IMG/VR virus record: IMGVR_UViG_3300020548_000306
Origin: a virus
DNA: 64,000 nt
Strand: one strand, 5' to 3'
Shown here: in pieces, positions 6,384-17,796 of the stretch
Position numbering within the stretch: position 1 is the first letter of the stretch
Layout: each line of letters begins with the position of its first letter
Program-made: the position numbers and the translations under genes
Notes under the pieces: model-generated
Database searches by the model: none
Told to the model about the DNA's origin: nothing
The model's input: only the letters and a program-made list of their open reading frames with translations

Positions 6384-6566
6384 TTAAGCTTTAACTGTTT
6401 TAGTTTTTGTTGAAACATCTAAACGAATGTTTTGTGCTAATGTTTTAACGTCTTGTAACGCTTTTCTAAATCTTACGCCAGCAGCTTTGTTACCTTTATC
6501 GTAAAATTTTGTTGCATCGTCTTCGATTGATGCTACCAAGTTTTTTAATTCTTCGTACTTTTCCAT
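6384..6566 (-). CDS. Hc1-family histone H1-like nucleoid protein
   Basis: GNKAAGVRFRKALQDVKTLAQNIR matches the Hc1 core GNKAAGxRxRK seen in Chlamydia and Bacteroidota. Confidence 0.85.
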   Translation of the reverse strand: MEKYEELKNLVASIEDDATKFYDKGNKAAGVRFRKALQDVKTLAQNIRLDVSTKTKTVKA

Positions 6567-6834: not shown

Positions 6835-7305
6835 TTAAAACGTTTTTTTTAGCGAATTTTCAAATATTTTGTATAATTCTAATAAAGTATCAATGTCAGC
6901 ATTTGTCTTTTCTCTTTCATAATCAAAAATGTTGGCCCATATAACTGTTAAGCTTTTATTTAGATTTTCATCTTTTTTAGGGTCTAAATAAAATAACTCT
7001 AAAGTAAATTCTAAAAAATATTGATATAACTTATCACTGTTTATTGTTATTTCTTCTTTTTCAAAATTATCAATAGTTTTCTTCCAACACCAATCAAAAT
7101 GTTTAAATTGCTGCTCATTAGTTGTTAATTCATCACCCAGATAAGTTGTGAAAACTAAATCTAAAAGAGATAATGTAAAATCACCATATAACACACACTT
7201 ATCATTATATATATTATGTGTGCTATATATCTTTAACATAGTATCAATACTTACTGGGTTATGAATGTATGCCAATAAATTTAATTTATTGAAATTATTG
7301 CTCAT
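6835..7305 (-). CDS. Hypothetical protein
   Basis: 156-aa ORF, 2-nt gap after the YkuD-like gene (same operon). Confidence 0.75.
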   Translation of the reverse strand: MSNNFNKLNLLAYIHNPVSIDTMLKIYSTHNIYNDKCVLYGDFTLSLLDLVFTTYLGDELTTNEQQFKHFDWCWKKTIDNFEKEEITINSDKLYQYFLEFTLELFYLDPKKDENLNKSLTVIWANIFDYEREKTNADIDTLLELYKIFENSLKKTF

Positions 7306-7307
7306 TA

Positions 7308-7916
7308 TTATTTTATATCATTTGATTCTATAAGTGTATAAGTAAATGAGTTACCATGTATTTTAGAAGCTTTTTTAACAATCTTCATAAATTCATCAAA
7401 ATCTTTAACTCTTTTAAATACTTGACAACCAGCTGACCAGTTTTCTACCCATGTAGAATCTTGTCCAGCTTTATGGATATTGATACCGTAAACACCTTCA
7501 GTAATTGTTTTCTCATCATAAATTAAATCTTTGTTTGCGTCACGATAAACTTTAACTGGCTTTACTTGTCTTAAAGCTTCGTATTTACCTTGGTGAAGAC
7601 CTAATGCATGTGAACTTCTATATTGACCTTCAACTAATCTAGCAACACCACCTTTAATTCCCATTTTATCAAATTCTAAAACAGATTTTTTACCTGGTTC
7701 TGTTGTGTTCATCCATTCTTTATAAACCCATGCACCAGTTTCATCTTTGTAAGAAATTGTGATGATGTCATCAAACACGTTTGTTACTTTATTCCCAGTT
7801 GCTGAGTTTCTAACACCTACAATGTTAACATCGTATGTTTTATTTGCTGCGTCTTCGAAATAGACGTAATTTTTGGCTTTTAATGCCGCTTCAATTTTTT
7901 CTCTTGTGTAAACCAT
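7308..7916 (-). CDS. YkuD/L,D-transpeptidase-like cysteine enzyme (putative peptidoglycan modifier or hydrolase)
   Basis: GINIH-x9-WSAGCQV gives the H...SxGC catalytic motif; no signal peptide. Confidence 0.7.
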   Translation of the reverse strand: MVYTREKIEAALKAKNYVYFEDAANKTYDVNIVGVRNSATGNKVTNVFDDIITISYKDETGAWVYKEWMNTTEPGKKSVLEFDKMGIKGGVARLVEGQYRSSHALGLHQGKYEALRQVKPVKVYRDANKDLIYDEKTITEGVYGINIHKAGQDSTWVENWSAGCQVFKRVKDFDEFMKIVKKASKIHGNSFTYTLIESNDIK

Positions 7917-7921
7917 TTTTT

Positions 7922-8476
7922 TTATTTTTTATCGATTTTATCTGAGGCGTATTTAACCCCCATTATTGTTCCTATAATACTAAAACTGTTTGTTAATAAA
8001 ATACCAAACATATTCGACCATGATGATTCTATAATCTTTGAATCACCACCTATTGTTATTATGTAAATGTACATTGCTGTTGTTATTATACCAACACCAA
8101 TTATTACTGATAGTGCTATTTTAACAATTAACCCAATTAATTCAAATTGAGTTCTTTTTTGTAATAAATCTAAATCTCCTTCTGCTGATTTTTTAGCTTT
8201 CTCTGCTTGTTCTAATGCTAGTTTTAACTCTACATTTATTCTATCATTTTCTTCTTTTGCTTTTATTAATTGAGAGTTTTGAGCTTGAACTTGTTTTGTG
8301 ATGTTTAATCTTTTTCTTCGATTTTCATTATCATTTTCAACACACGTTTGTAAATATTTTTTAAAATCTTCATCATCAGTTTCAATAATTTTGGCAATAT
8401 TTCCCTCTAAACCTATTTTTCTAGATTCATATAGTTTTAAAAGTTGTTCTATTGTTTTCTTATCGAAACTTACCAT
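7922..8476 (-). CDS. Coiled-coil protein with two C-terminal TM helices
   Basis: Heptad-rich N-terminus; TMs LIGLIVKIALSVIIGVGIITTAMYIYII and MFGILLTNSFSIIGTIMGV; start overlaps the receiver stop (TAATG). Confidence 0.8.
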   Translation of the reverse strand: MVSFDKKTIEQLLKLYESRKIGLEGNIAKIIETDDEDFKKYLQTCVENDNENRRKRLNITKQVQAQNSQLIKAKEENDRINVELKLALEQAEKAKKSAEGDLDLLQKRTQFELIGLIVKIALSVIIGVGIITTAMYIYIITIGGDSKIIESSWSNMFGILLTNSFSIIGTIMGVKYASDKIDKK

Positions 8477-8913
8477 TATCTGTATACTTTAAATGCTGAT
8501 TTACCATGTTTATAATTCTCAAAATCTTTTCTGAAGTCTTCTAATCTAGGTTCTATGTCATCTGATTTTACAATCCAAAATTGAGCCCCAGCTTTTACTG
8601 CTTTTGCTTGTTCTTCTGGTTCATCACTAGATGATATTATTCCAATGATAACGTGGTTACCATATTCAAAATTTATTTTTCTAATCAACTCAATACCGTC
8701 AAAACTTGAACCGATAATATTTAAATCTACAAAAACACATTCTGGTCTTTCTTCTGTTTTATTGTTTTCATACCACGACTTAAACATTTTTTCAGCTTCA
8801 TCTGCTGAAGAAACGCTTTGCAGCGAAAGTGTTATATCTAGAAGACTACATGCATCTTCGAAAACTAAGTGGAATAAATCTTCATCATCCACTAATAATA
8901 TTGAATCTATCAT
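8476..8913 (-). CDS. Single-domain response regulator (REC only)
   Basis: ILLVDDED acidic pocket, VFVDLN phospho-Asp, ISSS, AGAQFWIVK conserved Lys; no output domain. Confidence 0.92.
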   Translation of the reverse strand: MIDSILLVDDEDLFHLVFEDACSLLDITLSLQSVSSADEAEKMFKSWYENNKTEERPECVFVDLNIIGSSFDGIELIRKINFEYGNHVIIGIISSSDEPEEQAKAVKAGAQFWIVKSDDIEPRLEDFRKDFENYKHGKSAFKVYR

Positions 8914-8919
8914 AACTAT

Positions 8920-10689
8920 TTAATTTTTATTTAACTTTATTTTCATTTTAGTTCCTATTTCATTTTTTTCACAATTAATTTTGAAACCATGCTCTTTTAA
9001 TATTGCAATACAAATATTTAAACCTAAACCAGTACCTGGCTCTTTTTGATTTTTGTTTCTAGTATACGGTTTTGAATATTCTTCAAATTCTTCTTGTGTT
9101 AATCCTCTACCATTATCTTGTACAACCAATGTTTCTTCATCTTCCATATAAATGTGGATTACTTTATTGTTTGAATCATTGTATTTTAAACCGTTTCTAA
9201 TCAAATTATCAATTGCTGTACAAAATAAAGATTCGTTCACCTCGTGATTAGGTAAATCATCAATTTTAATTTGACTAAAATATGCTGTTGATTTTAAGAA
9301 ATTAACCAATATTTCTTTAATGTTATGATAATCTTTTGATAAAACTGCGTCTTGTTTAACTAGGTTTGTAAATTCATAAACCCCTTTGTAAACTTTTTGT
9401 GTATGTTTTAAACCTTCTTTCAACATTCTTAAAGGTGCTTCTAATTTAGTTTCTTCTATAATTTCTGGTGATAATCTTCGTTCTAACGAACTAATACCCC
9501 TAGGGATATATGTATTTATACCAGAATGCATATCGTGTCTTAGAATCTTCGCAGCGTGCTCTAAATAGGTATTCTTTTTATTTAATTCATTTAACGATTC
9601 AAACAATTCGCTTACATCTTGTCTAATTGATGTGAAGCCCATTAGCTCACCAGTTTCATGATTAAAGTCAGCTTTAATATATGTGTCTACATAATATAGT
9701 TTACCGTTTTTGTTTTTATTAACCACTAATTCATGCCAAATCTTTTTATTCTTTACAGTAGTCTTATACATTTTAGTCCAGAATTCTTTTGATTGAACCC
9801 CAGAATTAACTATGCTGTGGTCTTTACCCAAAAGTTCTCTTTTACTGTAACCACAAACTTCAATAAACTTTTTATTAACATATGTTATTTTACCGTTTTT
9901 ATCCGCTTTTGAGACCAATGCGGTTTCGTTAATAAATTCCTCAAAATCAATCATATTTTGTTCAACAATTTTGTTTTCTTTAACGGAATACATAAACGAA
10001 AACAAAGATGATAACATCTCAGCAAAATTAACTTCAACCTTATGCCATTCTCTAGGTTTAAACGCTTCAATACAGATAACACCAATAACTTTACCTTTAT
10101 AAAATATTGGAACGTCTAACATAGAATTTATACCTAAAGGAATTAAATATGATTCCGTAAAACATCTTGTTGATTGATGCGTTCTAGCATCATTAGCTAC
10201 AATTATTGGGTCAACTATAAGGGCGTTGAAATAAGGCTCGTAATCCGTCTTATATAACGTAATATTGTTATACCATTTGTCTTCATGCTTTACATATAAT
10301 TGTTTACACGTAATAGCTGATTTATCTTCGTTATATAACCATATTGAACATCTGTCAGTATCAGTTGATAATGTAACTTCTTTTGTTAAATGTTTAGAAC
10401 CATCAATAATGTTACCATCATAAAATAATTGATTGTGTGATTGATGAATTAATGTTTCATTCAATTTTTTAGCATAATAATTTAACTTTGTGGATTCTTT
10501 ACCTTTTCTGATAAACCCTCTTACGAATAGAAAAGCTGGTATGCTAAATAGAATTATTGATACGTAATTGAAAATTGCAATTTCTTTGCATAACGGTATA
10601 AAATCTAGCATAATGAAAGTATGCATTAAAATATAAAAGACCATTATTGCAGTACCAATTCCAATATAAATTTTGTTAAGTTTATCCAT
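8920..10689 (-). CDS. Sensor histidine kinase, 2TM-GAF-PAS-HisKA-HATPase
   Basis: Two N-terminal TMs; GAF (DRCSIW...GINSMLDVPI...IGVICIE); PAS (ITYVNKKFIEVCGYSKRELLGKDH...RQDVS); H-box LRHDMH; N-box IDNLIRNGLKYN; G1 DNGRG; G2 GTGLGL. Confidence 0.93.
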   Translation of the reverse strand: MDKLNKIYIGIGTAIMVFYILMHTFIMLDFIPLCKEIAIFNYVSIILFSIPAFLFVRGFIRKGKESTKLNYYAKKLNETLIHQSHNQLFYDGNIIDGSKHLTKEVTLSTDTDRCSIWLYNEDKSAITCKQLYVKHEDKWYNNITLYKTDYEPYFNALIVDPIIVANDARTHQSTRCFTESYLIPLGINSMLDVPIFYKGKVIGVICIEAFKPREWHKVEVNFAEMLSSLFSFMYSVKENKIVEQNMIDFEEFINETALVSKADKNGKITYVNKKFIEVCGYSKRELLGKDHSIVNSGVQSKEFWTKMYKTTVKNKKIWHELVVNKNKNGKLYYVDTYIKADFNHETGELMGFTSIRQDVSELFESLNELNKKNTYLEHAAKILRHDMHSGINTYIPRGISSLERRLSPEIIEETKLEAPLRMLKEGLKHTQKVYKGVYEFTNLVKQDAVLSKDYHNIKEILVNFLKSTAYFSQIKIDDLPNHEVNESLFCTAIDNLIRNGLKYNDSNNKVIHIYMEDEETLVVQDNGRGLTQEEFEEYSKPYTRNKNQKEPGTGLGLNICIAILKEHGFKINCEKNEIGTKMKIKLNKN

Positions 10690-10704
10690 GTTGTAACTTT
10701 AATT

Positions 10705-10712
10705 ATAAATAT
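10705..10712 (-). promoter_or_regulatory. ATATTTAT phage promoter-like motif for the kinase operon
   Basis: 15 nt upstream of the kinase ATG, downstream of the lysozyme terminator. Confidence 0.6.
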
Positions 10713-10724
10713 TCAAAAAAAACC

Positions 10725-10752
10725 AAAAACCCCAGCCGTGGCCAGGGTTTTT
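10725..10752 (-). terminator. Intrinsic terminator of the lysozyme gene
   Basis: ACCCTGGC-CACG-GCTGGGGT plus U-tract on the minus strand. Confidence 0.75.
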
Positions 10753-10771
10753 GAATAATTTCTTCTTGTAT

Positions 10772-11233
10772 TTATTTAGTAAAATATAAATCAGCTTCAG
10801 CTGTTCTTCTAGTAACTAAACCTTTTAACGTTCTGCCGCCAGCTTTTGTCCATTTCATAAATTCAGCTCTGATTGTTTCATCGTTAGGGTTAGCATTAAC
10901 TTTTTTTAATAATGTTGAAGATTTTAAGTTAGCTGGTCCTAAATTGTAACAAAAAGAAACTAATGCATCAAATTGGTTTTGTGTGATAGTATCAATACAA
11001 TATGAATCTACATATTGTTCAAATTTTGATAACATAGATTTCAACAATTCAACACCTTCAGCTTCAGTTACAGCTTTGTCAGACATTGTTACTTTTTTAC
11101 CATTAGGGTAAAACGTTGCTCCATATGCTATTGTAGGAATCCCAGCTGGACACTTATAAGGTTTAGACATAAACCCTTCAAATTTTTTAATTAGTTCGAT
11201 ACCTTTTGTACCAGTTTTTGTAATCTTTTCCAT
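10772..11233 (-). CDS. GH24 phage lysozyme (endolysin)
   Basis: FEG...YKCPAGIPTIAYG gives the E-x8-C-x5-T triad; QNQFDALVSFCYNLG; W...GL..RRTAEADL. Confidence 0.95.
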   Translation of the reverse strand: MEKITKTGTKGIELIKKFEGFMSKPYKCPAGIPTIAYGATFYPNGKKVTMSDKAVTEAEGVELLKSMLSKFEQYVDSYCIDTITQNQFDALVSFCYNLGPANLKSSTLLKKVNANPNDETIRAEFMKWTKAGGRTLKGLVTRRTAEADLYFTK

Positions 11234-11245
11234 AACTTTTTATTC

Positions 11246-11253
11246 ATAAATAT
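11246..11253 (-). promoter_or_regulatory. ATATTTAT phage promoter-like motif
   Basis: 12 nt upstream of the lysozyme ATG. Confidence 0.6.
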
Positions 11254-11262
11254 TATACAAAT

Positions 11263-11294
11263 AAAAAAGGTACCCATTAGAGTACCTTTTTTTT
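11263..11294 (-). terminator. Intrinsic terminator
   Basis: AAAAAAGGTAC-CCATTAGA-GTACCTTTTTT inverted repeat with A/T tracts on both sides. Confidence 0.75.
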
Positions 11295-11312: not shown

Positions 11313-13490
11313 TTATTTAACACCATATTTGCCTTGTGCTCCATAATGGTGACCATTCTTTTTCCACCAAGCAGCATCTTTAAGTGCACTACCAGCTAAT
11401 GCTGCAACACCTAAACCTATTGCTAATGCTGGATGACCCATCATAGCCGCTGGGATAATACCAGCTAATGAACCTAAAGCACCACGCATTATAAGTTTAT
11501 CTAAAATTTGTCTTAATTTTAATTCACTTTGGCTCATACCATAATCACCTTCAGCTGGTGGTTCTGGTAAACCTTCATTAACTGATTGATTTAATGCATT
11601 AGCAACCATTTCTTTACCACCTTGTTGATAAGCTTGTACTAAAAAATTAACTTCTTCTGGTGATAATATTGATTCTATTTTATCAGCAACTTTTTCAGCA
11701 CCAACCTCAATTGATTGCACAGCATCTTCATTCATTGCCATTCCAGTGTCAGCACCCATATTTTGAGTACCCATATTTTGAGCAGCATCTGGTTGTTTTG
11801 AATTAATATCATTCATTACTTGTTTTAATTTATCAACAAGTACTCTCATTTTACCAGAATCTTGATTACCTGGGTTGTCAAACGTTGAAATTAAATCGTC
11901 AATAATTGAATATAATTCAGCTCTTTCATTTCCAGCTATTTTACCAAATGCTGTTCTAAGTTTATCGTTAATTAAACTTCTAAAATCATTAAAAGCAACT
12001 TTAATTTTACCCATACCTTCATTCATCATGTCTTCGTACATAGCTGCTTCATTCATTTCACCTTCTTCGTACATACCTTCTTCCATCCACGATTCGTTGA
12101 TTGGTTCAAATTTGATTCCACCTATAACAACACCTTCAGATAAACCTTCTTCATTTTCTTTAGCTTCAGTTTCAACTTTTGCAGTTGTTTCTTTACCCAT
12201 GTGAATGTGTTTTTTTGCGTCAGCAGCTTGAGGAACATTGATTTCATCCCAGTTACCTTCTTTAGCTGTTACATCTTCAATATTTTTACCACCTTTAGAT
12301 GTTGTTTCTGTTGATTTAGTAGTTTCTTCTTTTACTTCTTCCTCTTCTTTAACAACTTCTTCCTCTTCAACAGATTCTTTCATTGTCACATGTTTAGTCG
12401 CTTCTGCTGCATGTTTTTTAATTTTTTCAAACTCACCAGTTTTTGGATTTGGTGCTTCAGTTTTCTTTTCAGAAGCTACAGAACCTTCAACATGTTTTTT
12501 TGCATCAGCAGCTTGAGGAACATTAATTTCATCCCAGTTACCTTCTTTAGCGTCAGCATCTTCGATGTCTTCCATTTCCATTAACATTTTTGTTTTTTTC
12601 CAAATGTCATTGAATGTTGAGTTTTCATCTAATCTAGCTCTACCTTTAACAGTACCTAAAGTTTCTTGAGATTTGTAACCCATAAGGTGTTTCATCTTTT
12701 GCATATCTTCATTAACCATAGTTTTATCAGCTGCCATAAGTACAACTGCTTTACCTTCAGTTAATGAACCTTCCCAACGGATTTTGTAATTTTCTACACC
12801 GTCAGTCATTTCAAATACTTTATTATCTACTCTGTATGATTCTGGTATCATTTTAAGTGCATTTCCAACACCGTTAAACTCTTTTTTGAATTTAAGTCTT
12901 TTCATTCCTTCTTTTATTTGTGTTTTATTGTTATCTTTATTTTCCGCTAACGCTGAGTGAACACCCATAGGTTGGTTACCTTTTGGTACAACCTCTATGT
13001 CATCACCAAAACTCATAATACCAGTCTGAGCATCCATTCTCTTTTTAAATGAATCTTCTGCATTCTTAACTAAGTTTTTACCGAACTCTGGTCCAGTAAA
13101 TCCTTGTTGTGCTGGAATAACATTAGCCCAATCTGGATTGTTACCCATTCTACTTGAACCTTCGATTGCTTCTTTTGCTCTATCTTTGAATTCTTTGTTT
13201 GGGTCTCTGTCATATTGAATCATCTCTTGACCATTCATGATTTCCATTTGGTCGTGATATTCTTTTTCTTTATCACCGTTATAGTTAAATTTGTTGTTAA
13301 CATCAGTAGCTTCCATACCTTTGTTTAAATTTTTCTCATAACTAGCTAAATTTTTATCAACATCTTTAACAGCTTGTTTGTTTATTTTTTCTGATTCTTT
13401 TTTTGCAGCATTTGTTACCGCAATACCTGGAGTTTCAGCTTCATTAACAAATTTATTAACTAAATGTTTTTTAATTATATTTTTATCCAT
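11313..13490 (-). CDS. Large acidic protein, probable head-associated/internal virion protein
   Basis: Many xxE sites (VNE, LAE, IKE, LTE, INE, MNE); duplicated AKEGNWDEINVPQAADAKKH; Gly/Ala-rich hydrophobic C-terminal hairpin. Confidence 0.7.
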   Translation of the reverse strand: MDKNIIKKHLVNKFVNEAETPGIAVTNAAKKESEKINKQAVKDVDKNLASYEKNLNKGMEATDVNNKFNYNGDKEKEYHDQMEIMNGQEMIQYDRDPNKEFKDRAKEAIEGSSRMGNNPDWANVIPAQQGFTGPEFGKNLVKNAEDSFKKRMDAQTGIMSFGDDIEVVPKGNQPMGVHSALAENKDNNKTQIKEGMKRLKFKKEFNGVGNALKMIPESYRVDNKVFEMTDGVENYKIRWEGSLTEGKAVVLMAADKTMVNEDMQKMKHLMGYKSQETLGTVKGRARLDENSTFNDIWKKTKMLMEMEDIEDADAKEGNWDEINVPQAADAKKHVEGSVASEKKTEAPNPKTGEFEKIKKHAAEATKHVTMKESVEEEEVVKEEEEVKEETTKSTETTSKGGKNIEDVTAKEGNWDEINVPQAADAKKHIHMGKETTAKVETEAKENEEGLSEGVVIGGIKFEPINESWMEEGMYEEGEMNEAAMYEDMMNEGMGKIKVAFNDFRSLINDKLRTAFGKIAGNERAELYSIIDDLISTFDNPGNQDSGKMRVLVDKLKQVMNDINSKQPDAAQNMGTQNMGADTGMAMNEDAVQSIEVGAEKVADKIESILSPEEVNFLVQAYQQGGKEMVANALNQSVNEGLPEPPAEGDYGMSQSELKLRQILDKLIMRGALGSLAGIIPAAMMGHPALAIGLGVAALAGSALKDAAWWKKNGHHYGAQGKYGVK
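12208..12266. repeat. 59-bp direct repeat, copy 1 (codes AKEGNWDEINVPQAADAKKH)
   Basis: Matches 12493-12551 with two synonymous mismatches. Confidence 0.9.
12493..12551. repeat. 59-bp direct repeat, copy 2
   Basis: Matches 12208-12266. Confidence 0.9.
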
Positions 13491-16081: not shown

Positions 16082-16645
16082 CTATTCTTTTATTTTTATA
16101 TTATTTATAACACTTATAGTATCTTTCATACATTCACTATAAATTTTGGAACTGTAATAAGGTTTAAATTTCAATAATCCCCATAAGTATTTATTTTCCC
16201 AATCTTTATATAGAAATGTTGTTAAATTATCTTTAAATTCTTTATTCGTAAATGATATTGAATCTTTTTTAATAAACCCAGAAAAAGTATAACACTTTTC
16301 TTTTAATGTGAAATAACTTTTTTCTGAAACACTATCTGTTTTTAAAACAGTAGATGTAACAACAGAATCTCTAAATCTATATTTAGTATCTATAATGTTT
16401 GTTATGTGTTTTGTTTTAATATTTAAAACTTTTGCTATTGAATCATATTTTGGGTATAAGTCTTTTAGTTCACCAGCAGTTAATTCTTGCTGCCTAGACT
16501 TATCTTTAACGATTGCAATAACGTTATTGCTAAATCTTTTTCGTTCTTCTTTTTCATTTTTATATAGCTTAAATAAAAAAGCTAGTGATGTAAATAATAC
16601 CACCACTAATAAAACTAATCCTATTAATATTTTATTTTTTAACAT
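16082..16645 (-). CDS. N-terminally membrane-anchored protein, spanin-like candidate
   Basis: Start reassigned to MLKNKIL; one N-terminal TM followed by a coiled-coil/beta region; lies in a cluster with an amidase. Confidence 0.6.
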   Translation of the reverse strand: MLKNKILIGLVLLVVVLFTSLAFLFKLYKNEKEERKRFSNNVIAIVKDKSRQQELTAGELKDLYPKYDSIAKVLNIKTKHITNIIDTKYRFRDSVVTSTVLKTDSVSEKSYFTLKEKCYTFSGFIKKDSISFTNKEFKDNLTTFLYKDWENKYLWGLLKFKPYYSSKIYSECMKDTISVINNIKIKE

Positions 16646-17183
16646 CATAAAAAAGGTCATCATCTGTTTTAGGGTCATTTTGTAAGTTGGTTAAATAACC
16701 ATTTAACCCAGTTTTAAGTTCTTCTTCATTTAAATCACCATCACTTGCTGAATTAGATTTCATACCTTGTGTATATGATATTGTGAACTCAAATTTATTA
16801 GCGTCATTAACTGTTTTTTCACCAGTAATTACTATGTCACCAGAAAAATTTTCTGTTTTAGGTTTAATGTAAATACTAGTTATTCTAATACCTAATTTTA
16901 ATCCTTCGATAGCAGTATTAACTTTTGTGAAACGTTCATCGTTCTTAGCTAATTTTTCATATGAATCATCTATAGGAAATAATGGTTGTGGACCTTCTGC
17001 TGGTGCTTCAGCCATTTTTTCTTCTTCTGGTTCATCTGGTAAATCATCACCTTTTTCAAATATTGGTTTAGGTACGGAAGCTGTTGCTGGTGCATCATCT
17101 TCTTTTATCAATGTTTTACCAAATTCTCTAATTACTGACATCATTTTTTTTGTCATGTCGTGTTCGTTAATGTTTTCTTTCAT
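16632..17183 (-). CDS. Hypothetical acidic protein with xxE leader
   Basis: MKENINE...IRE...LIKE; Pro/Glu-rich linker. Confidence 0.7.
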   Translation of the reverse strand: MKENINEHDMTKKMMSVIREFGKTLIKEDDAPATASVPKPIFEKGDDLPDEPEEEKMAEAPAEGPQPLFPIDDSYEKLAKNDERFTKVNTAIEGLKLGIRITSIYIKPKTENFSGDIVITGEKTVNDANKFEFTISYTQGMKSNSASDGDLNEEELKTGLNGYLTNLQNDPKTDDDLFYDVKK

Positions 17184-17187
17184 TCGT

Positions 17188-17796
17188 TTAATTTTTACTT
17201 TCTAGTTTATTTTTAAATTGTTCACAATCCCATGCTGGTGATACATCAAAATAGTGTTTGGATATGTTACTTTTATATAACACACCATTATAACTACTCG
17301 TATCCTCAATTTTTGTATTGTGTCCTATAGCGGTTTTAGGTATGAAAAATTCATCACATAAATAATCACATAATTCAACACATGAATCTAATTGTTCTTG
17401 TGTGTAAGTAGCCCATTTGTTGATTCCTTTCCACATTCTGCCAACCACTATTCCATTATAAATATCACCTTTCCAGTTATAAAAATTCTTATCTGGTGAT
17501 TTTCTAGTTAAATACCCTTCATTTTCTAGTAAAATAATAATGGATTTAGTGTTTTGTTCTAATTTAGAAAAGTATTTAGATTGAAATGTTGGTTCAAAAT
17601 GTTTATGAATAACACCATCTTTATCTATTGTGAATGCTGCCGTTTTTTTATTGTTTCCGTTTAATCTAGTTTTCCAACCTATAACATGTGTCATGTCTTT
17701 GCTATTAGTATTACCAATAACTATTTGTTTTTTAATACATTCAATAGGTACATAATTTTTTTCGTCTAAACTGTATTTTTTGTCTTCTATTATCAT
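17188..17796 (-). CDS. N-acetylmuramoyl-L-alanine amidase (Amidase_2/PGRP fold), first Zn ligand apparently substituted
   Basis: QIVIGNT, FTIDKDGVI, SIIILLENEG, YTQEQLDS, IGHN, FDVSP. Confidence 0.75.
   Translation of the reverse strand: MIIEDKKYSLDEKNYVPIECIKKQIVIGNTNSKDMTHVIGWKTRLNGNNKKTAAFTIDKDGVIHKHFEPTFQSKYFSKLEQNTKSIIILLENEGYLTRKSPDKNFYNWKGDIYNGIVVGRMWKGINKWATYTQEQLDSCVELCDYLCDEFFIPKTAIGHNTKIEDTSSYNGVLYKSNISKHYFDVSPAWDCEQFKNKLESKN

Follow-up and report, generated by a model that had tools for sequence, protein, structure and literature searches.

The window analyzed here is the 64,000-nucleotide stretch of viral DNA filed as IMG/VR record IMGVR_UViG_3300020548_000306. It is a contig of a large, uncultured freshwater phage, with genes for a ribonucleotide reductase (RNR), a DnaB-type helicase, an SbcC-like nuclease, a baseplate wedge protein, and a sigma factor of its own. 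On its minus strand, three adjacent genes encode a sensor histidine kinase (HK; 589 amino acids, aa; positions 8920 to 10689), a stand-alone receiver without an output domain (REC; 145 aa; 8476 to 8913), and a coiled-coil protein ending in a hairpin of two transmembrane (TM) helices (TM2; 184 aa; 7922 to 8476). The trio is preceded by a GH24 phage lysozyme gene (153 aa; 10772 to 11233) and followed by genes for a 202-aa protein (7308 to 7916) and a 156-aa protein with no assigned function (6835 to 7305). An earlier note on this DNA had described the region as a phage two-component signaling cassette within a lysis locus. Its open reading frame (ORF) positions and minus-strand assignment for all of these genes were correct, as were the intergenic gaps of 6, −1, 5, and 2 nucleotides (nt) that it gave for the array from HK to the 156-aa gene.

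The kinase consists of a family-specific anchor of two TM helices, placed at the N terminus by a hydropathy scan, a GAF domain (residues 100 to 230), a PAS domain (residues 262 to 361), a probable DHp segment with H385, and a catalytic ATPase domain. The GAF and PAS domains were recognized by Pfam, and the ATPase domain by its HATPase_c model over residues 488 to 587 (E = 3e-14; 53.7 bits against a cut-off of 26.4). A match to the Pfam HisKA model was not obtained at E ≤ 0.01; the residues around R-H385-D are invariant and lie in a helical segment ahead of the ATPase domain. The H box (R-H385-D), N box (D494-N..N499), G1 box (D525xG527xG529), F box (F535), and G2 box (G552xG554xG556) were all found by inspection and are invariant in the kinase alignment, in agreement with the claim that all catalytic boxes are present. 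The receiver was recognized by Pfam Response_reg (39.3 bits against a cut-off of 30.2), and its D9/D10, D63, S94, and K116 are invariant in the alignment and have CheY-like spacing. It is a receiver-only regulator with an intact Asp/Ser/Lys set, as had been proposed, and both the ATPase domain and the receiver are those of a classical two-component system.

Among relatives, the DHp/CA part of the kinase and REC (72 to 96% identical) are far better conserved than the sensors. The length of HK ranges from 295 to 743 aa, and GAF and PAS inserts are swapped. The minimal kinases (295 to 320 aa) are made up of the family-specific two-TM anchor and DHp-CA, and the others insert GAF-PAS, PAS-PAS, or other segments. 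The comparison of the window kinase with cultured phages returned matches to PAS or ATPase pieces only.

For TM2, the alignment, a hydropathy scan, and an AlphaFold2 (AF2) model (pLDDT 86.6) were combined. A conserved N-terminal domain (N-domain; residues 1 to about 35) is followed by a continuous helix (residues 36 to 142), a short outer loop, a second TM helix, and a basic tail. In the model, the helix of residues 36 to 142 passes from the cytoplasmic coil straight into the first TM helix (TM1) and then into the hairpin. The hydropathy scan located two TM helices at the C terminus, and together with the model it supports the earlier description of a coiled-coil membrane protein with two TM helices. 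The second TM helix carries a GxxxG motif and is near-invariant, with a conservation peak at W153, F165, S166, I167, T170, G173, and K175. A lesser peak corresponds to a short N-terminal L-E-G-N motif, and the length of the coiled coil differs by about 35 residues among relatives. No match of TM2 to named Atlas clusters was found. In fold searches, neither the PDB nor the AlphaFold clusters yielded a row below E = 1, as expected for a long helix with a hairpin; the single weak row was a SMODS/SLOG-associated 2TM effector (E = 3.3).

A riverine metatranscriptome library contains a 271-nt contig that matches the TM2 gene at positions 8058 to 8295 with zero base differences and one gap. This contig may indicate expression; carry-over of DNA is possible, and the match was not counted as proof of transcription.

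Conservation of the trio and its lysis-gene neighborhood

A census was made of 80 of the at least 507 IMG/VR loci of the trio, 33 of which are well flanked (at least 3 kb on both sides). HK, REC, and TM2 occur together in every census locus whose contig reaches far enough, and their adjacency is kept in close and distant relatives (41 to 94% identity). At all junctions read across the clades, the stop codon of REC overlaps the start codon of TM2; the shared sequence is TAATG in five cases and TAGTG in one. The junction in the window is TAATG, and in L012 the overlap is 4 nt by ORF coordinates. In a large protein database, TM2 forms 4,685 clusters at 90% identity, on contigs of up to 255 kb, which collapse to 252 clusters at 50% identity without a link to any named family. 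The trio family is therefore large, with thousands of variants, including those on phage contigs of 245 to 255 kb.

Among 185,579 species genomes, the trio was found in only 3. All three cases are contigs of metagenome-assembled genomes (MAGs), and phage structural or PHROG genes were found on both of those scanned. This near absence from bacterial genomes indicates that the trio is not a recent bacterial insertion, an origin that the earlier note had allowed for. HK-REC-TM2 is thus a conserved unit that is apparently restricted to phages. Phage-like contigs of high GC content (L012 and L011), which had been assigned to MAGs of Gemmatimonadota and Bdellovibrionota, also carry the trio; the occurrence of the module thus extends beyond the AT-rich phages of Bacteroidota.

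A 365-kb relative shares the backbone of the window, including homologs of a 504-aa and the 725-aa protein, the 202-aa and 156-aa proteins, and the histone H1-like protein Hc1, and lacks exactly the lysozyme, HK, REC, and TM2 genes. This indicates that the mobile unit in the window clade is the lysozyme gene plus the trio. The 202-aa and 156-aa genes, which the earlier note had included in the cassette, persist in this relative and are therefore backbone genes outside the signaling cassette; the 156-aa gene comes next after the 202-aa gene whether or not a relative carries the cassette.

Lysis genes of several unrelated kinds adjoin the trio, which itself stays together across related phages, as the synteny check suggested in the earlier note had anticipated. 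In the window clade, the GH24 lysozyme is encoded directly upstream and the 202-aa protein directly downstream. In L004 and L005, a holin-like 81-aa protein with two TM helices and a GH19 enzyme are encoded directly upstream of the trio, and in L006 a holin-like 102-aa protein and a PG_binding-GH19 enzyme follow directly after TM2. An M15 peptidase gene is located 17 nt downstream of the trio in L175, and a Phage_holin_4_1 gene upstream of it in L160. In the L147 type, the largest class, TM2 is followed by genes for a 47-aa TM protein, an i-spanin-like protein, a lipoprotein, the 202-aa protein, and a holin-like protein and then by the portal gene. Fusion genes, described below, were also found among lysis genes. 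That of L015 separates an i-spanin-like gene from a lipoprotein gene, and an endolysin gene follows; that of L014 is upstream of holin-like, spanin-like, GH19, and glucosaminidase genes; and that of L105 has a holin-like gene on one side and an M15_3 endolysin gene on the other, with overlapping codons at both.

In total, at least six distinct trio/lysis arrangements were distinguished, with four unrelated types of muralytic enzyme. A lysis-like gene was found within 3 kb in 18 of the 33 well-flanked loci with a limited seed set, and L160 and L162 add a Pfam holin. By our own estimate, one lysis cassette per 100- to 250-kb genome would give a chance expectation of a few percent. Lysis genes adjoin the trio far more often than this estimate gives.

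The reading that we favor, with modest confidence, is that HK, REC, and TM2 form a phage-specific three-gene signaling module with a hairpin effector that tunes the release of lysis enzymes. The gene content suggests that these phages may time the bursting of the host on an internal signal. A broader claim is more tentative, although still a real possibility: the module may represent a previously undescribed class of signal-gated lysis regulators, in which a two-helix membrane effector would be set by PAS/GAF sensors, either directly or via a viral kinase-receiver phosphorelay, and the virus would pick the moment of lysis by an intracellular cue (energy, redox, or nucleotide).

Several observations weigh against a role in lysis. 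About 13 of the 33 well-flanked loci have no recognizable lysis neighbor; the neighbors there include YceI, an Endonuclease_NS nuclease, and proteins without assignment. The placement of the relay within a lysis locus, as in the earlier note, holds for many loci and not for these. The loci come from related phages, so that their counts are not independent events and the meaningful tally is that of distinct arrangements. Near the cassette in the window, no recognizable small holin or spanin pair was found. TM2 gave no Pfam match at E ≤ 10 and no PHROG match at E ≤ 0.001 when compared with holin families, and a tblastn search of cultured-phage records with TM2 returned no match. Its size is above that of typical holins: TM2 has 184 aa, of which more than 110 aa are cytoplasmic, and the fusions reach 371 aa. 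Separate small holin-like genes are present beside TM2 in several cassettes, and TM2 is therefore probably not the sole holin. These holin-like neighbors are not homologous to one another, whereas the TM2 hairpin is near-invariant, which argues against TM2 being a simple holin-binding antiholin. The weak support from the predicted receiver contact, given below, belongs with these points.

Part of this evidence would also fit a relay that governs some other membrane process instead of lysis (superinfection exclusion, the takeover of envelope or energy functions of the host, or counter-defense, for instance), with proximity to lysis genes reflecting the clustering of membrane and envelope accessory genes. 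We consider this unlikely. Roughly 40% of the well-flanked loci lack a recognizable lysis neighbor, the contexts include YceI, nuclease, and virion genes, and no holin family is matched by TM2; moreover, a sensor combined with two TM helices is typical of abortive-infection effectors, among which the weak SMODS/SLOG row falls. However, at least six arrangements with four unrelated muralytic types are hard to square with loose clustering, and the fusion genes sit within holin/spanin/endolysin cassettes with overlapping codons. PADLOC models gave no match to HK, REC, TM2, the 202-aa and 156-aa proteins, or two fusion proteins.

Alternative wirings and the predicted receiver contact

Four alternative architectures, each present in at least two samples, were obtained from a search of representative proteins. 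P0270 consists of a GAF domain, a coiled coil, and the hairpin, and its GAF domain is 59% identical to that of the window kinase (E = 1e-75). In P0299 and P0304, the coiled coil and hairpin follow PAS(-PAS), and the PAS domain is 53% identical to that of the L005-type kinase. These three sensor-hairpin fusions are without the TM2 N-domain and have no adjacent kinase or receiver gene; on the two longer fusion contigs, no kinase or receiver genes were found. In P0362, HisKA-HATPase takes the place of the hairpin behind the TM2 N-domain and coiled coil, and the gene is preceded, with a 1-nt overlap, by a gene for a 143-aa receiver. This arrangement suggests a receiver-to-kinase cascade assembled from the same parts, in which a soluble kinase has a TM2-type N-domain and coiled coil as its input.

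Because the coiled coil and hairpin also occur joined straight to a GAF or PAS sensor, without an adjacent kinase or receiver, the simplest reading is that the hairpin would be a sensor-controlled effector, acted on directly or via a phosphorelay. Similarly, the N-domain is most simply read as a putative docking module for the receiver, since the receiver stays coupled to it in P0362, while the direct fusions drop both receiver and N-domain. As natural short circuits from sensor to hairpin, the fusions are also compact constructs for laboratory tests.

The complex of REC with TM2 residues 1 to 100 was predicted with a median score of 0.49, compared with 0.00 for the best control. Contact agreement between runs was at least 96%, and the pLDDT of the partner was at least 86. 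Of the 80 solved complexes in the benchmark, 58 reached the mark, as did 2 of 110 mismatched pairs; passes scoring 0.60 or less comprised only 7 of those 80 solved complexes, plus both passing mismatches. A prediction of this kind had been suggested in the earlier note; a contact was indeed predicted, and at this median score it weakly backs the binding of REC to the N-domain.

The rewired forms also bear on a different role for TM2. LiaF and BceB are accessory partners of the intramembrane-sensing kinases LiaS and BceS, and TM2 might likewise be an accessory co-sensor that touches the two-TM anchor of HK, with the receiver acting on another phage or host target. The minimal kinases of 295 to 320 aa, which offer the anchor as the sole possible input, would fit such a role, as would the constant co-occurrence of HK, REC, and TM2 and the conservation of both the kinase anchor and the TM2 hairpin, each of which is family-specific. 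This role is nevertheless quite improbable. The hairpin exists fused to GAF or PAS without an adjacent kinase or receiver gene, which argues for a kinase-independent role downstream of the sensor. In addition, the receiver remains coupled to the N-domain when a kinase replaces the hairpin (P0362), and the complex prediction weakly backs the receiver-to-N-domain contact.

It is very hard to see the cassette as a recently captured bacterial two-component system (a moron) without a phage-specific role: the HK and REC domains are of bacterial type and the PAS domain of the window kinase is about 31% identical to that of the aerotaxis receptor (Aer), but the trio is conserved over phage lineages to about 41 to 48% identity in thousands of variants, the rare occurrences in species genomes are those on the MAG contigs described above, and the base composition of the cassette region is the same as that of the remainder of the window.

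Proposed signaling path and relation to known systems

For the module as a lysis regulator, we infer the following path. The membrane-anchored HK would read a cytoplasmic or membrane cue via its exchangeable GAF/PAS domains, its conserved two-TM anchor, or both, and its invariant transmitter would phosphorylate D63 of the stand-alone receiver. The receiver would then dock on TM2, to which it is translationally coupled, at the small N-terminal domain, and the signal would run down the long TM2 helix, which is continuous with TM1. A change in TM1 may alter the packing or oligomerization of the invariant GxxxG-bearing second helix of the hairpin. In the cytoplasmic membrane, the hairpin would be a regulated element that behaves like a holin or controls one, for example by oligomerizing or depolarizing. 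This membrane event would promote or restrain the release of the neighboring muralytic enzymes, so that lysis could be advanced or delayed by a cytoplasmic cue.

Phage lysis is understood to be timed by a clock intrinsic to the holin, which antiholins adjust in a few cases. Holin/antiholin timing systems include S105/S107 of lambda, the pinholin S21 68/71 of phage 21, and T with RI/RIII of T4. TM2 is like class II holins in its predicted N-in/C-in topology with two helices and its basic C-terminal tail. Further features in common with holin systems are a GxxxG-type motif in the second helix and a position beside endolysin genes, sometimes with overlap. The position next to an endolysin was found in the window clade and in many arrangements, not in all loci. 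In contrast to holins, TM2 has more than 110 residues in the cytoplasm, in its N-domain and coiled coil, and matches no holin family model, and its input would be a kinase and receiver or a fused PAS or GAF domain rather than a dual start or a periplasmic antiholin. Holin/antiholin systems are not known to have a sensory input like this. If the proposed path is true, a viral sensory pathway would feed into the lysis machinery, and the time of burst would come under the control of a signal.

CheY (on FliM), DivK, CpdR, and Spo0F are single-domain response regulators that work through contact with another protein. Like these, REC has no output domain and an intact phospho-acceptor pocket and is predicted to signal by partner binding. 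It differs in that its partner would be a phage membrane protein and the whole pathway is virus-encoded. A receiver that acts on a membrane hairpin would, if true, be a new type of output for two-component signaling.

Sensor-fused TM effectors are known from abortive infection, namely the 2TM effectors of CBASS and Pycsar and the SLATT/S-2TMe proteins. The GAF- and PAS-hairpin fusions share with them the order of a ligand-binding domain, a helical linker, and two TM helices. The fusions differ in being phage-encoded within lysis cassettes, not in host defense islands, and have no sequence or PADLOC match to these effectors.

In Firmicutes, the two-component system LytSR controls the holin/antiholin-like CidAB and LrgAB via transcription (PMC5717393). 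Both systems have a GAF-containing, membrane-anchored sensor kinase tied to membrane proteins of the holin/antiholin type and to murein hydrolase activity, and the concept of a phosphorelay governing membrane-lesion proteins would be common to both. LytSR is bacterial, however, and uses a LytTR DNA-binding regulator, whereas the phage module has only a receiver, which is proposed to contact the membrane protein directly. The 5TMR-LYT and LytTR domains were absent from the Pfam scan of the cassette, and TM2 is unrelated in sequence to LrgA and CidA.

The Clostridioides difficile phage phiCDHM1 carries the quorum-sensing genes agrD, agrB, and agrC, for which a horizontal gain from the host was proposed (PMC3901668). 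A histidine kinase gene on a phage is thus a shared feature. AgrC is described as host-derived and without its own regulator or membrane output (PMC3901668), whereas the HK-REC-TM2 trio is self-contained and phage-restricted. In a survey of jumbo phages, the only relevant mention was a divergent receiver linked to NAD systems (PMC7824862). The literature search returned no paper on a phage kinase or receiver wired to lysis.

The 202-aa protein, promoter-like motifs, and other features of the window

The 202-aa protein had been called a YkuD-like wall enzyme. It has no Pfam match, YkuD included, at E ≤ 10, and this name was not supported. The sole YkuD-resembling motif is H148-x15-S-x-G-C164; H108, H148, and C164 are invariant. 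When hhalign was run against four genuine YkuD domains, only the motif region from H148 to C164 was aligned (P = 0.004, probability 8%). Sequence and profile searches of the PDB gave nothing meaningful, and the AF2 model, made from a shallow alignment, was unusable (pLDDT 46). The protein belongs to phrog_3000 and matches the C-terminal half of an "endolysin" PHROG whose N terminus is a lysozyme domain. Homologs were found in crAss-like, Bacteroides DAC, Pseudoalteromonas, Leptospira, and Bdellovibrio phages, and the one at L016:2944-3558 is crAss002 gp5. In the L147 class, its gene (L147:7495-8073) occupies the endolysin position, with a spanin-like gene before and a holin-like gene after it. 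A role as a wall hydrolase is plausible because of the PHROG match, the phage homologs, and this position, and the phrog_3000 protein is a candidate for a new endolysin family. In the riverine RNA library mentioned above, diverged pieces were found over the 202-aa gene.

The lysozyme was recognized by Pfam PF00959 (Phage_lysozyme, E = 2e-41) and phrog_7 (endolysin, 6e-52), and its sequence has no N-terminal TM or signal segment. Between the lysozyme and kinase genes lies a terminator-like hairpin on the minus strand (positions 10723 to 10754), with a 14-pair stem that includes six GC pairs and is followed by T8. A lysozyme and a terminator thus precede the kinase, as had been reported. A second such hairpin on the same strand (positions 11263 to 11292; 13-pair stem, then a T run) is located 3' of a 725-aa gene (11313 to 13490), which lies directly upstream of the lysozyme gene and has no Pfam or PHROG match. 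The C terminus of the 725-aa backbone protein consists of a glycine-rich hydrophobic segment and then a basic tail. In a 255-kb relative (L008:2743-4710), the lysozyme gene lies between two GIY-YIG-like homing-endonuclease genes, and the lysozyme ends (aa 1 to 36 and 134 to 153) are duplicated; this lysozyme gene looks as if it had been invaded by homing endonucleases.

The promoter-like motif ATATTTAT stands before the starts of both the lysozyme and the HK genes, and the kinase operon is therefore headed by a motif, as had been noted. Ahead of the lysozyme start, ATATTTAT is located at positions 11246 to 11253 of the minus strand, at a distance of 12 nt; ahead of the kinase start, ATATTTATA is located at positions 10704 to 10712 of the same strand, at a distance of 15 nt. 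Within the window, ATATTTATA has 13 matches, 12 of them on the coding strand, compared with 5.4 ± 1.7 expected. It also occurs ahead of the DnaB-helicase gene and other genes, and is therefore uninformative on late timing. The use of ATATTTAT(A) as a marker of late promoters was rejected, since replication genes are also preceded by the motif, and the proposal that the circuit acts late in infection was not supported.

The genes from HK to the 156-aa gene do not form the closed five-gene operon that the earlier note had suggested. The tight co-directional array runs past the 156-aa gene, with next gaps of 38, 2, 12, and 9 nt, into the Hc1 gene and further. The Hc1 histone H1-like gene (positions 6384 to 6566; PF07432, E = 3e-22) is kept in relatives with and without the cassette.

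The closest relatives of the window phage by RNR are Cellulophaga and Tenacibaculum phages, and many metagenomes of lakes and fresh waters, dated 2016 to 2024, contain the window DNA. Because of these findings and the nearby Hc1-like gene, the host is likely a member of the Bacteroidota. A megablast search of the region against cultured phages gave no match.

An Amidase_2 gene at positions 17188 to 17796 (35 bits against a cut-off of 26) is the third muralytic-type gene of the window. Two genes away from it, a 198-aa protein is encoded that has a single TM helix at its N terminus and matches DUF6549 weakly. Positions 16082 to 17796, at a distance of about 6 kb from the lysozyme gene, may hold a second cluster related to lysis.

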